Origin: a virus
Lineage: Duplodnaviria; Heunggongvirae; Uroviricota; Caudoviricetes
Reading direction: 5' to 3' (one strand)
IMG/VR virus record: IMGVR_UViG_2531839449_000010
Location: 1-8,488 of that record
DNA: 8,488 nucleotides
A program made the translations under genes and the position numbers. Positions 724 through 5,052 of this stretch are shown here, piece by piece; the first letter of the stretch is position 1, and each line of letters starts with the position of its first letter. The notes below the pieces were generated by a model, which had not been told where the DNA came from, did no database searches, and worked only from the letters and a program-made list of their open reading frames with translations.

Positions 724-1326
724 TTACCTCTTTCTCAGGGAGTTTAGTCTCCAGGATTTCCGGGGCGGTTCAACCATCTCAATGGATGGTGTTCCGCATT
801 GGTTACCCCAGACATCAAATCCATGCGAGGTGTGACGGGCGAACAGTTCTATCCGGGGAACATCGCCAAGAAGTTGCACAAGTTTTTCTCGCGCCATATC
901 CGGCTTGCGGGAGTGATCAAGGCGCGGTGCAGTGAATGACTGGATTATTCCGGCGTTAATGCGTTCAGGCAGATTTCCTTTCACTGCAAAAAGGCAGTCT
1001 TCGCTGTTAGCGCGAGTGGTGCTACCCATACCCATGACCAGCTTGTCGGTCTGTCTTTTCCCGCATTTGTTCCAGGTTAATCCTTTCATCGTCACCAGAC
1101 GAAAGCCCCACGCTTCTACAACCTTCAATGCTTCAAGTGGTTGTGTAGGCACCCACCACATAGCCAACAGGCAATTATCGGCTGCCAGTTCCCATACCGG
1201 GAGGCGGCAGATATCCAGAAGACTCATGACCGGATATTTAAAACTTGCACCGCGTTGACCATCGGTTGCTTTGTCTCGGAATGTCCAGGGGGGATCTGCG
1301 TAAATGAGAGTGTATTTTTTCGTCAT
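724..1326 (-). CDS. MT-A70-family DNA N6-adenine methyltransferase (phage orphan methylase); 3' end interrupted by the IS, so residues 186-200 are IS-encoded
   Basis: N-terminal motif LIYADPPW (catalytic DPPW). The ATG at 1324..1326 overlaps the stop of the upstream gene (ATGA). The reading frame crosses the IS boundary at 772/773; the tail [15 protein letters not shown] is translated from IS terminal sequence. Confidence 0.8.
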
Positions 1327-1526
1327 AGCGCGTTTTCAAACTCATCAATGTAAAGTGCAACAAGTGCAACGCATCGTCTGAAATCGGCTGCGTCATGTGG
1401 AGCACCGAAGCTATGACCATAGATATTCTTTTTCAGTCCACATGCGATTGAGGCAAGAGTTGCGCTACTGATGCCAACATCGCCAGTCGATTGCCATTTC
1501 AAAACCTTCATAGCCAAATCTGACAT
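1323..1526 (-). CDS. hypothetical small prophage protein (67 aa)
   Basis: ATG at 1524..1526 preceded by GGAGA at a 7-nt spacing. Stop overlaps the methyltransferase start (ATGA), suggesting translational coupling. Confidence 0.55.
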   Translation of the reverse strand: MSDLAMKVLKWQSTGDVGISSATLASIACGLKKNIYGHSFGAPHDAADFRRCVALVALYIDEFENAL

Positions 1527-1539
1527 TTCTTGTCTCCAT

Positions 1540-1563
1540 AAAACAAAACCCGCCGTAGCGAGT
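1540..1563 (-). terminator. candidate intrinsic terminator (distal of a tandem pair)
   Basis: Minus-strand RNA ACUCGC-UACG-GCGGGU forms a 6-bp stem (one G.U) with a tetraloop, followed by UUUGUUUU. Lies between the stop at 1645 and the next start at 1526. Confidence 0.4.
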
Positions 1564-1566
1564 TCA

Positions 1567-1594
1567 GATAAAAGAAATCCCCGCGAGTGCGAGG
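1567..1594 (-). terminator. candidate intrinsic terminator (proximal of a tandem pair)
   Basis: Minus-strand RNA CCUCGC-ACUC-GCGGGG forms a 6-bp stem (one G.U) with a tetraloop, followed by AUUUCUUUUAUC. Same stem design as the hairpin at 1540..1563. Confidence 0.4.
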
Positions 1595-1644
1595 ATTGTT
1601 ATTCATTGCCGATATTCACCTTTATCGCGAACACCTTTACCGGT

Positions 1645-1887
1645 TTATCTCCTTTGCATGGCGCGTAATTTTTTCAGATGGTTCTCCTGCTCTGTTTCAG
1701 CCAGAATTTGTCGGTATTCCTGGTGATCGATCCGTTCAAACAGTTCATTAAAATCGTTTATTTTTACCGACTGTGTTCGCCCATCCATTCTTCTGTACAA
1801 CACAGTGTTGTTTATGCAGCGAAGAATTTTTATCGGGTAGCCGGCGCTATCGGTGTATATCTGACCACGTTGAATCAGAGCGAACAT
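1645..1887 (-). CDS. hypothetical small prophage protein (80 aa from the ATG at 1887; the track ORF extends to a TTG at 1941)
   Basis: Open frame 1645..1941. The TTG at 1941 has AGGAG directly abutting it (spacing too short), so I prefer the internal ATG at 1885..1887 (MFALIQRGQIY...). The start is uncertain. Confidence 0.4.
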   Translation of the reverse strand: MFALIQRGQIYTDSAGYPIKILRCINNTVLYRRMDGRTQSVKINDFNELFERIDHQEYRQILAETEQENHLKKLRAMQRR

Positions 1888-1961
1888 TCCTTTATCCCCA
1901 GCGGAAAAGCGAATACAGAATAAATGCCACCGCGATTGCAACTCCTACAGCGGTGAATGCT

Positions 1962-2971: not shown

Positions 2972-3319
2972 TCACTCTCCTTTAGTGCGCAAGTGGTTTT
3001 TCCAGCGGTTTTGCTCCGCGCTGGGCTTTTTGCAAAAACCACAATCCATCATCCCGTAATATTTCATCAACCCCATCCGTCGGTTGCTGAGTCTCACCCA
3101 CTGCCAGACGCCAGGAGCGTTTCTACGAACTAACAGAATCTTTGCTTTACGGTTTTTCATCGTTTTGCTCTCCTGCATCTCTTTGCTGCTCGTCGTGCCG
3201 CTGCAATACCGGTATGGCGGCGCTTTGGTGTCGGGATGATGTTCTTTGCAATTAGCGCAGAAGCCCAAAAACGAGTCGGATACGGTAACAAACTGATACA
3301 TGCCACACGCATTACTCAC
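2972..3319 (-). CDS. cysteine-rich putative zinc-finger protein; start uncertain (GTG at 3319 gives 115 aa, ATG at 3161 gives 63 aa)
   Basis: Continuous open frame with Cys pairs (FCANCKEHH...YRYCSG and MMDCGFCKK). The GTG at 3317..3319 overlaps the upstream stop by 8 nt but has a poorly spaced AAAGGGGG. The internal ATG at 3159..3161 has a strong AGGAGAG at a 7-nt spacing. Confidence 0.45.
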   Translation of the reverse strand: MSNACGMYQFVTVSDSFLGFCANCKEHHPDTKAPPYRYCSGTTSSKEMQESKTMKNRKAKILLVRRNAPGVWQWVRLSNRRMGLMKYYGMMDCGFCKKPSAEQNRWKNHLRTKGE

Positions 3320-3860
3320 CCCCTTTGTTGCTAATGCTTACAGCCTGGCAAGCCTCTTTGAGTACCCAGTCAACAGCGTCTTTCCATGCTCCGGTTTCAA
3401 CAGATGGATTCTCACGCTTTACCTGTTCATAAAAGCGCACTGCTTTAATCAGTTCTTCCGGTACTACTGGCGATGCCTGTTTAGCTTCTAAATCAGCAAT
3501 TCTGTCAACCACGGCATCTACTGCATCTGAAAAACTGAAACAGTTACTCCATTCCGGCCTGTCCCCGGTTGCTGCAAAATACATATCAGCTAAAGCAGAC
3601 TCAGCATGGTCACGCTCATTAATGAGTTGCTCTTCGCTTTTCTCCTGTTCGGCTATGCGCTTACTTCCATCCGCGATTACTCCCTCGTAATACTCACGCT
3701 GCTCGTTGAGTTTTGATTTTGCTGCTTCCAACTCATCCAGTAGCGCCAGCACAACCTGAGGTGTGGCTTTCATACGAAATGCCAGCAATTTTTGAGGCGT
3801 TGCTACTGTTTCAATTGCTACTGCCGCCTCACGCAGTGCCTGGTAATTAATTTCGCTCAC
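3312..3860 (-). CDS. Ead/Ea22-like prophage protein (182 aa, GTG start)
   Basis: N-terminus (V/M)SEINYQALREAA... is the Ead/Ea22-like family signature as I recall it, followed by a coiled-coil-like charged heptad region. AAGGAGG lies 6 nt upstream of the GTG at 3858..3860, which overlaps the upstream stop (GTGA). Confidence 0.6.
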   Translation of the reverse strand: MSEINYQALREAAVAIETVATPQKLLAFRMKATPQVVLALLDELEAAKSKLNEQREYYEGVIADGSKRIAEQEKSEEQLINERDHAESALADMYFAATGDRPEWSNCFSFSDAVDAVVDRIADLEAKQASPVVPEELIKAVRFYEQVKRENPSVETGAWKDAVDWVLKEACQAVSISNKGGE

Positions 3861-4621
3861 TGGTTGCCTCCTTTGCGAAGCTCAGCGGCGAAAGATGTTG
3901 CTGCGGAAGCGATAATTGCATGCCGGTATTCACCATCAGAAAATAAAGAATCTCCCTTAAGTGCATTGACGATACTCTGATGATTTTTTGCCAGCATCTC
4001 CACGCCCTGCGCCCGTACTTCAGCCAGGCATTTGCGAAACTCGGAAACGTACTGTTCGACGCTCATTCCCCAGCTAAGTGGACATTCATTGAATGTTTCG
4101 CCTTCGTGCTCTTCATCAGGTAGCTCTTTGGTAAAGAACTCACGCTCAATGGCGTGGAGTGTGTCAGCAAAACGACGTAAGTTACTCAAACCTACCGTAA
4201 TGGAGAATTCAGGAGCATCACATCCGACGCCCATCTGCTGATAAACTGCTGTTTTGAAGGCCTTCAACTCCGCATTCTCCGCCGCCAGAGCCGAAAACTT
4301 CTCGTGTGCCAACTTAACAGCCGAATCAGCCTGCTTAATTGACTCAATCGCTTTCTGTTGGTCTTCGGCCAGCTTCGCTAAATTAGCCTCCAGTTCGGCC
4401 ATGCGTTCGTTTAATGCATCTCGTTCATCCAGTAGTGACAGCACGGTTTCTGGCCCGGCCATAATTTTAAAGGCGTGAATCGCATCAATATCAATACCAA
4501 GCTCCTTGAGCTTCTTTTCGCTTAATAAATCATCATCACCTGGTAATATTGACAGATGTGTCATCGCTGTAATTGCGCGTTCCGACACGTCACGCAATAC
4601 CTGATAGTCAATTTTGCTCAC
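3857..4621 (-). CDS. Ead/Ea22-like prophage protein, second tandem paralog (254 aa from the GTG at 4621)
   Basis: The track ORF 3857..4969 (370 aa) is over-extended. The in-frame GTG at 4619..4621 (VSKIDYQVLRDVSERA...) has the same AAGGAGGCAACCA-GTG initiation context as the paralog at 3860. The upstream stretch 4622..4969 is accounted for by two other coupled genes. Confidence 0.55.
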   Translation of the reverse strand: MSKIDYQVLRDVSERAITAMTHLSILPGDDDLLSEKKLKELGIDIDAIHAFKIMAGPETVLSLLDERDALNERMAELEANLAKLAEDQQKAIESIKQADSAVKLAHEKFSALAAENAELKAFKTAVYQQMGVGCDAPEFSITVGLSNLRRFADTLHAIEREFFTKELPDEEHEGETFNECPLSWGMSVEQYVSEFRKCLAEVRAQGVEMLAKNHQSIVNALKGDSLFSDGEYRHAIIASAATSFAAELRKGGNQ

Positions 4622-4856
4622 TGGTTGCCTCCTTTGTGGATCTGCGCTGCGATGCACGAAAAAAAGATTCCCGCGTATGACAGTTAAGAGCTGGTGCGAA
4701 AGCCGCGTTAAGAACGGCAGCATCACAGCCGTCATCGATATAGAGCGCAATTTTTTTCTCCAGGCGCGCTTTGGCTTCCTGCAACTGCATACCCCGGCAC
4801 GTACGCGGGATATACTCAGCAATTTGAGCGATAGATTTTTCGTTCTGTTTAAACAT
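4608..4856 (-). CDS. hypothetical small prophage protein (82 aa)
   Basis: ATG at 4854..4856 overlaps the upstream stop by 8 nt (ATGTTTAA). Its own stop lies 14 nt inside the next gene. No family recognised. Confidence 0.5.
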   Translation of the reverse strand: MFKQNEKSIAQIAEYIPRTCRGMQLQEAKARLEKKIALYIDDGCDAAVLNAAFAPALNCHTRESFFRASQRRSTKEATSEQN

Positions 4857-5052
4857 GCTTCACCTCGACAGGCTTGATTGTGTCGATCAGCAGTCTGCGG
4901 CGCGTATTTTCTGCAAAGTGGCGGCGTCCGGTTTCTTTGTGGTAAAACTCGTTTTTGCCGACGACCCACATCCGCTCTGTCTGGTGAAGTTTTTTTACCT
5001 GCGGGCCGCCTTTGGTGATCACAATGCCGGTATGGGTTTTTACGATTGTCAT
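4849..5052 (-). CDS. hypothetical small prophage protein (67 aa)
   Basis: ATG at 5050..5052 overlaps the PAPS-reductase-like stop (ATGA), with GAGG 9 nt upstream. No family recognised. Confidence 0.5.
   Translation of the reverse strand: MTIVKTHTGIVITKGGPQVKKLHQTERMWVVGKNEFYHKETGRRHFAENTRRRLLIDTIKPVEVKHV

Follow-up and report, generated by a model that had tools for sequence, protein, structure and literature searches.

Two Tandem Terminator-Like Hairpins of the Lambda t3/t4 Type in the Distal Leftward Early Region of a Lambdoid Stx Prophage

The lambdoid Stx prophage analyzed in this work carries, toward the distal end of its leftward early (pL) operon, two adjacent RNA hairpins, hereafter HP1 and HP2, which probably represent serial Rho-independent terminators. 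Judged by its sequence, the feature is an already known one, i.e., a tandem terminator block of the lambda t3/t4 type; it is familiar rather than new because nearly the same block of 80 bases exists in phage lambda, where it has already been predicted to represent two terminators. According to the mechanism that we propose, an RNA polymerase left unmodified by N at nutL, whether deriving from leaky or pre-N transcription from pL or from an internal or IS-borne promoter, would release its transcript at either of the two U-tracts, and the small ORF and the methyltransferase gene lying downstream, as well as the xis/int end in intact relatives, would then stay untranscribed. After induction or infection, the N-modified polymerase would pass both sites. 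The pair is also part of an intergenic cassette of about 80 nt (stop codon, HP1, HP2, Shine–Dalgarno (SD) sequence, start codon) that lambdoid phages swap as a whole where their mosaic segments meet.

If the hairpins work in this way, they would provide one more safeguard keeping the distal early-left genes of the prophage silent when polymerase has not been modified by N. The genes so guarded would be an anti-restriction-type methylase here and xis/int in the intact relatives, which would fit the textbook control of lambda genes.

Genomic Setting of the Hairpin Pair

On the basis of its similarity to known phages, the whole stretch of DNA that was analyzed (8488 nt; hereafter, the window) belongs to a lambdoid prophage of the Stx2a (PA2-like) type and corresponds to its early-left accessory region, which two inverted copies of an insertion sequence (IS) interrupt. 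The window is about 99% identical, in pieces, to the Stx2a-converting lambdoid phages PA2, phi349, and phi346, and all its genes are oriented leftward, like the early-left accessory region located between the recombination genes and int; pL, nutL, and N lie outside it. The phage segment (773–7887) is bracketed by two IS3-family arms (172–772 and 7888–8488), which are perfectly inverted. The hairpin module lies downstream of N in lambda and in Sakai Sp5, and here the IS at 7888–8488 intervenes.

Some features of the two IS copies were noted as well. The complementarity between the arms is complete (100% over 601 nt), and an ALIL frameshift pseudoknot is present in each of them (321–437 on the minus strand and 8223–8339 on the plus strand). 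The segment between the inverted copies could invert via homologous recombination, and the right copy is now placed between the phage segment and pL/N. At about position 772, the C-terminus of the methyltransferase is replaced by IS sequence; PA2 also has an IS in the same gene.

Beyond the interrupted methylase gene, PA2 harbors further genes and then int. The scans against Pfam and PHROG also recognized, among the window proteins, DUF4222, DUF551, and two Ead/Ea22-like proteins, and a PAPS reductase and a DUF2303 protein were named after the PA2 annotation. The relatives of the small ORF located downstream of the hairpins are annotated only as hypothetical. Its identification as a P22-type Xis was considered but is not supported, in that the P22 xis gene overlaps int, where P22 has no module.

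The 47-nt spacer preceding HP1 (1598–1644) is a remnant of another gene and corresponds to the sequence that encoded the C-terminus of a 94-aa protein, referred to as "RNA-binding protein" in HK022 and Sakai Sp5, and the TAA of this relic gene (1601–1599) lies 1 nt before the HP1 stem. A recombination joint at GATAAACC (region 1598–1652) creates the present stop codon of the DUF4222 ORF.

Sequence and Structure of the Hairpins

Both hairpins are located on the minus strand, within a gap of 118 nt extending from the stop codon of the DUF4222 ORF (1647–1645) to the ATG of the 67-aa ORF (1526–1524). Their coordinates and those of the neighboring features are reported in Table 1.

Table 1. Features of the hairpin-bearing region, with positions in the window.
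Feature	Position	Strand	Details
HP1 stem-loop, AAUCCUCGC-ACUC-GCGGGGAUU	1597–1576	minus	9 bp, 4-nt loop, −12.5 kcal/mol
HP1 U-rich tail, UCUUUUAUCU	1575–1566	minus	
HP2 stem-loop, GAACUCGC-UACG-GCGGGUUU	1565–1546	minus	8 bp, UNCG-type tetraloop, −10.5 kcal/mol
HP2 U-rich tail, UGUUUUAU	1545–1538	minus	
SD GGAG (1537–1534), spacer, and ATG (1526–1524) of the downstream ORF	1524..1537	minus	
Spacer between the DUF4222 ORF stop and HP1	1598..1644	minus	47 nt, non-coding here
Whole mosaic module	1524..1605	minus	~80 nt; TAA, HP1, tail, HP2, tail, SD, ATG
Upstream ORF, DUF4222	1645..1941	minus	98 aa, stop 1647–1645; Pfam/PHROG scans
Downstream small ORF, phrog_8038/phrog_1229	1323..1526	minus	67 aa, function unknown
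MT-A70 family DNA methyltransferase ORF	724..1326	minus	3′ end enters IS copy at ~772

The architecture expected of an intrinsic terminator, i.e., a stem of about 5–14 bp closed by a loop of 3–8 nt, with a U-rich tract of about 7–9 nt directly 3′ of the stem, is found in both HP1 and HP2. Moreover, both lie in a non-coding position and are oriented on the minus strand, as are all the flanking ORFs. The HP1 core, consisting of six G-C or G-U pairs, leads into AUUUCUUUUAU and the HP2 core into UUUUGUUUUAU (both given as minus-strand sequence); 19 nt separate the HP2 stem from the downstream ATG. The U-tract of HP1 is interrupted (AUUUCUUUUAU) and each of the two stems has a G-U pair; thus, the efficiency of termination may be partial. 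The HP1 and HP2 units are about 60% alike by eye, and a common origin of the two is possible, if unproven; TRF does not report a tandem duplication of the 32-nt unit.

The preliminary description of this DNA had rightly recognized two hairpins of the same design, each with a tetraloop and a U-rich tail, but the 6-bp stems attributed to them are in fact of 9 and 8 bp, with A-U and G-U pairs. Their location downstream of the stop at 1645 and upstream of the start at 1526 was also correct, with the exception of the first position of HP1, which is 1597 rather than 1594. Furthermore, the two genes downstream of the hairpins had been described as the last ones of the operon; two genes do follow, but they appear to be the last only because the IS element cuts the operon at the methylase gene (~772), and because of the edge of the window.

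Folding and Terminator Prediction

When folded alone as RNA, HP1 reaches −12.5 kcal/mol (z = −5.3) and HP2 −10.5 kcal/mol (z = −4.9), and none of the shuffled sequences (0/200) folded as well as either of them. The folding of a 66-mer gave −24.6 kcal/mol for the minus strand vs. −13.9 kcal/mol for the plus strand, which is also devoid of a U tail; since the plus strand folds much worse and lacks this tail, the signal is one-directional.

A consensus pattern scan called both HP1 and HP2 terminator-like on the minus strand. When a loose pattern was searched for in the whole window, 11 sites were retrieved vs. 8.7 ± 3.5 expected, i.e., with no significant excess. A stricter score of the d'Aubenton-Carafa type, combining the hairpin energy with the U-tract, was also applied; its formula serves as a uniform ranking only, and it was validated by the recovery of sites taken as known lambda terminators, with tR′ being missed. 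This score assigns d = 12.7 to HP1 and d = 9.5 to HP2, and no other site on either strand of the 8488 bases has d > 0. Their U-tail scores (4.03 for the former and 4.45 for the latter) fall inside the range of the sites assigned to known lambda terminators. The dinucleotide-shuffled versions of the window, 60 in number, harbored on average 0.37 sites each, and a same-strand pair within 60 nt occurred in none of them (0/60).

These results bear on the reading of the two elements as tandem Rho-independent terminators, proposed in the preliminary description together with two checks on the minus strand, i.e., folding energies and a terminator predictor. Both checks speak in its favor, in that the stems are not weak and both sites are called by the predictor, being the only ones with a positive d in the window. 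The GC-rich stem, the tetraloop, the U-rich tail, and the same direction as the genes agree with this reading as well.

A pattern scan for promoters did not retrieve any promoter-like site between the hairpins and the downstream ATG; this, in turn, would imply that the small ORF and the methylase gene depend on read-through. The same kind of scan did not retrieve any promoter-like site upstream of the hairpin block. The assignment of the block to a known RNA family was also tried and rejected. The Rfam scan of the whole window was significant only for the two ALIL pseudoknots of the IS copies, and the best match obtained in a permissive local scan over positions 1450–1720 scored 19.8 bits vs. 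a threshold of 47.

The Lambda Copy and Other Lambda Terminators

In phage lambda, the block is found at 29286–29373, between ea8.5 and orf55 (lambdap35), with xis and int following shortly after. Both stems, both loops, and their spacing are identical to those of HP1 and HP2, an SD sequence follows in both phages, and both blocks are located distally in the pL operon. The comparison with the lambda early-left operon made in the preliminary description turned out to be closer than claimed, given that identical stems exist in lambda between ea8.5 and orf55. The two blocks differ in one substitution over the core extending from HP1 to GGAG, which falls in the HP1 tail (UUUCUUUU vs. UUUAUUUU), and the spacer between SD and ATG is not identical. 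The flanking genes are different as well, with DUF4222 upstream and the 67-aa ORF and the MT-A70 methylase gene downstream here, and with ea8.5 on one side and orf55, xis, and int on the other in lambda. Window positions 1602–1524 share 94.9% identity with the lambda derivative DE3. The lambda hairpins have been predicted by ARNold, in silico only, as t3_lambda and t4_lambda (Bloch et al. 2014, PLoS One, Table 4; PMC4195576). The search of the literature for Term-seq data or terminators in this part of lambda returned only in silico predictions.

The scan of the lambda genome with the stricter score yielded 27 sites. From the sequence and from the lambda map, we take the sites at 38606, 40618, and 33931 to be t_oop, tR2, and tL1, respectively, and those at 35807, 27544, and 31267 to be t_imm, tI, and tL3. 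On the same scale, the lambda copies of the two hairpins (at 29337 and 29308) have d values of 12.7 and 9.5, above that of tL3 (d = 8.3). The latter is reportedly an experimentally verified and mapped Rho-independent terminator (Luk and Szybalski, in 1982). Like HP1 and HP2 as interpreted here, tL3 is an intrinsic terminator placed in an N-antiterminated pL operon, and its hairpin energy (−12.7 kcal/mol) is similar to theirs; it differs from them in a weaker U-tract and in being a single site with another sequence, located just downstream of exo and within orf60a (in lambda, about 2 kb upstream of the block). The identity of the HP1/HP2 block with tL3 was ruled out, the lambda copy of the block being at 29286–29373 and tL3 being a different sequence near 31267. 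The tL3 sequence corresponds to t1 of Bloch et al. (PMC4195576).

A third hairpin, CCGCC-UGAU-GGCGG followed by U6, was observed at position 29112 of lambda (minus strand), with the second-highest score of the whole lambda scan (d = 32.4). This site coincides with the t5_lambda prediction of Bloch et al. 2014, obtained in silico only (PMC4195576). Hairpins of this type lie directly upstream of xis in lambda and in Sakai Sp5 (position 2859 of the Sp5 locus), and the one of HK022 (~1786–1805) precedes the homologue of the small ORF of the window. The distal pL operon of lambda, Sp5, and HK022 displays a series of hairpin–U-tract–SD junctions ahead of xis.

According to the paper on phage L (PMC8022706), intra-operon terminators are common, their roles are not known, and they may stop transcription that began without antitermination. 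The block described here resembles the intra-operon terminators of P22-like and other lambdoid phages in being predicted, in lying inside a presumably antiterminated operon, and in being placed at a module boundary (PMC8022706). It differs from those boundaries in that it is one specific and very widespread block of about 80 nt, the edges of which coincide with a stop and a start codon.

Distribution Among Relatives and Mosaic Boundaries

A query of 221 nt around the hairpins matched 366 phage records, mostly over the hairpin-bearing ~80 nt only. This block (1605–1524) is 95–100% identical in lambda, HK022, Sakai Sp5, and P22-like phages, with HK022 showing 95.4% identity over a longer match in two pieces. 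Moreover, it was found in 2286 out of 5426 complete E. coli genomes (42%), with up to five copies per genome. In Sakai Sp5, the block is flanked by ECs_1163 and ECs_1162, with an annotated N gene on its upstream side and xis two genes further on; in HK022 and Chlobot, the block occupies the corresponding place, just upstream of the xis/int end. The full hairpin pair is harbored by the P22-like phages SE1 and S107, and a single, different hairpin is present at the corresponding site of Cronobacter ENT47670.

About 190 IMG/VR loci were collected by exact match to either hairpin and, with the addition of the reference-phage loci, 197 loci were analyzed. Adjacent copies of HP1 and HP2 are present in most of them (175/197). 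Fourteen loci scored for HP1 only, a few of these being variants of the HP2 tail or sequence or ends of contigs; in seven, the hairpins are separated by an insert of 860 nt bearing an ORF of 266 aa, and in one HP1 is swapped for a different hairpin. As a separate observation, the 860-nt insert, found in locus L041 (minus strand, 9662–10545) and in six further IMG/VR loci, has the tail ATTTCTTTTAT on either side, as though the terminator tails served as sites of cassette exchange.

On the upstream side, homology ends at 1601–1605 in 122 loci and at 1652 in 48; on the downstream side, it ends at 1524 in 127 loci and at 1533/1534 in 22. The edges are sharp, and therefore the shared unit comprises the TAA (1601–1599), HP1, HP2, the SD sequence, and the ATG. 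The flanking sequences fall into 29 upstream and 10 downstream classes, giving 50 combinations, and the block can be considered a mosaic linker because its flanks differ so widely. In some loci, the joint immediately follows the HP1 tail or the HP2 stem. This is the case of the PA2-type phages, where the joint lies right after the HP2 stem and the U tail of HP2 has been lost, so that HP2 is evidently dispensable in these phages.

Short reading frames were noticed in some of the upstream contexts (loci L022, L031, L032, L115, L103, and L011), where they end at a TAA 1 nt before HP1. The frame MANLQLAVKGE has a GTG or ATG start located 5–6 nt after GGAGG, and the frames MAKAAAERN and MAKSAAERN display a TAATG stop–start overlap. 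Such frames may represent either mini-ORFs undergoing translation or relics.

Probing genome contigs with the module pattern retrieved 25 matches, which say little about the taxonomic breadth of the block; about half of them lie in contigs of low coverage, four of these contigs being ~48.4–48.5 kb long. The low-coverage ones (L204, L212, L217, and others) are assigned to Shewanella, Pseudomonas, Oceanobacillus, Kitasatospora, Bradyrhizobium, and other genera, and almost certainly derive from contamination with phage lambda control DNA; the remaining matches outside the Enterobacteriaceae are probably lambda contamination, too.

Conservation of the Hairpin Structure

The covariation analysis was carried out on 35 distinct variants, whose copies are about 95% identical. 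Pairing is maintained in 95.5% of the cells, with one double change, and the values are only marginally above those of the shuffle controls. With copies so similar to one another, there is hardly any covariation, and for this reason the conservation of the block could reflect recent recombination rather than selection. Most of the changes observed within the hairpins either preserve pairing (U-G to U-A or C-G) or affect the loops. Moreover, other GC-rich hairpins are found in the same slot with the U tail being kept, namely ACCCGC-CGAGU-GCGGGU in locus L126, ACCCGC-UGCG-GCGGGU in locus L085, and ACCCGC-UUCG-GCGGGU in ENT47670. The replacement of the hairpin with maintenance of the U tail argues for selection on the structure.

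Alternative Explanations

The mosaic boundaries recall the "moron" and linker concepts reportedly introduced by Juhala/Hendrix and Clark et al. for lambdoid phages, and the block might be mainly a conserved intergenic homology patch used for cassette swapping, with the hairpins being carried along by copying. The sharp homology limits on both sides, the number of flank classes and of their combinations, and the joints located after the HP1 tail or the HP2 stem (including the seven inserts with ATTTCTTTTAT at both ends) are in agreement with this possibility, and so are the occurrence of the block in such a large share of the complete E. coli genomes and the near-identity of its copies, with hardly any covariation. 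A role in recombination is, however, compatible with termination, and the presence of different hairpins with U tails at this position in L126, L085, and ENT47670 points away from mere copying; in addition, the series of terminator-like sites that precedes xis in lambda, Sp5, and HK022 suggests a transcriptional role. On the whole, we regard it as rather unlikely that the block is chiefly such a patch. Since intercistronic hairpins stabilize upstream mRNA, HP1 and HP2 might instead work chiefly as barriers to 3′-to-5′ exonucleases, guarding the mRNA of the upstream accessory genes with no release of the polymerase. The stability of the stems, the UNCG-type tetraloop of one of them, and the position where the accessory genes give way to the xis/int-proximal ones would suit this function, but a barrier to decay needs no U tail, and the U tails are conserved and are retained even where the hairpin has been replaced. 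We thus consider this function improbable, as we do its specific version in which the hairpins would protect the transcript after RNase III cleavage and decay from the sib/att end.

Two further possibilities imply a regulatory RNA. A ribosome halted at a stop codon placed 1 nt before HP1 might mask the 5′ arm of HP1, which seems very unlikely as a control mechanism; the 3′ arm of HP1 so freed would pair, an equally doubtful step, with the 5′ arm of HP2 (GCGGG/CUCGC), both terminators would be blocked, and only untranslated transcripts would stop. A long ORF ends 0–1 nt before the HP1 stem in 28 out of 81 distinct upstream contexts, and in other contexts mini-ORFs end there (MAKAAAERN, and MANLQLAVKGE, which begins with GTG or ATG behind a good SD sequence); furthermore, the two stems share CUCGC...GCGGG, and a 2:3 helix of about −6 kcal/mol is possible. 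Nevertheless, such a helix is far weaker than HP2 (−10.7 kcal/mol), the 2:3 complementarity comes automatically from two similar GC-rich stems, and stop codons abutting terminators are common. The features of a leader-peptide attenuator are not found in the window, where the mechanism would not operate because the stop codon is located 47 nt away and no properly spaced SD sequence precedes the GTG frame of 11 codons. In the very improbable case that it were true for the relatives, the block would represent a translation-gated insulator placed before the xis/int end of lambdoid prophages and carried on a mobile cassette of 80 nt; translated transcripts would escape both terminators and untranslated (spurious) ones would be stopped, an outcome to which we attach very little credit. 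It is even more difficult to envisage the block as the 3′ module of an Hfq-binding small RNA (sRNA), either derived from a 3′ UTR or free-standing, and we consider this extremely unlikely. The order of hairpin, U-rich spacer, and terminator hairpin with U tail does resemble Hfq-binding modules, and the prophages of O157 encode many sRNAs (PMC4104026). Against this, the pattern scan found no promoter-like site upstream, most relatives lose homology directly 5′ of HP1, leaving no conserved seed, and no Rfam family comes near its threshold. In the Hfq-CRAC data from uninduced O157 cells, no peak is listed near the Sp5 copy (~1,248,230–1,248,280) within the portion of Table S2 that was covered, and a text search of the supplement gave none either. 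The sRNAs HnrS and EcOnc10–12 were compared with the block and rejected, being located in late genes and almost only in EHEC and EPEC strains; as for the EcOnc sRNAs in general, the covered portion of Table S2 lists no EcOnc peak near the Sp5 copy.

Annotation of the Block and Other Repeated Elements

For annotation purposes, the block reading as two serial terminators can be labeled "lambda t3/t4-type tandem terminator module"; in lambdoid prophages, it shows precisely where one cassette ends and the next begins.

Another small hairpin (ACCUCG-ACGG-CGGGGU) lies on the minus strand at 7747–7732, near the 5′ end of an ORF of 115 aa (7440–7787); its stem is like that of HP1, its tail is weak, and it failed the stricter terminator score. 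Lastly, the two adjacent Ead/Ea22-like ORFs (3312–3860 and 3857–4969) contain direct repeats (3829–3891 and 4590–4652) with a spacing of 761 nt and 81% identity over 63 nt, which suggests a partial gene duplication.
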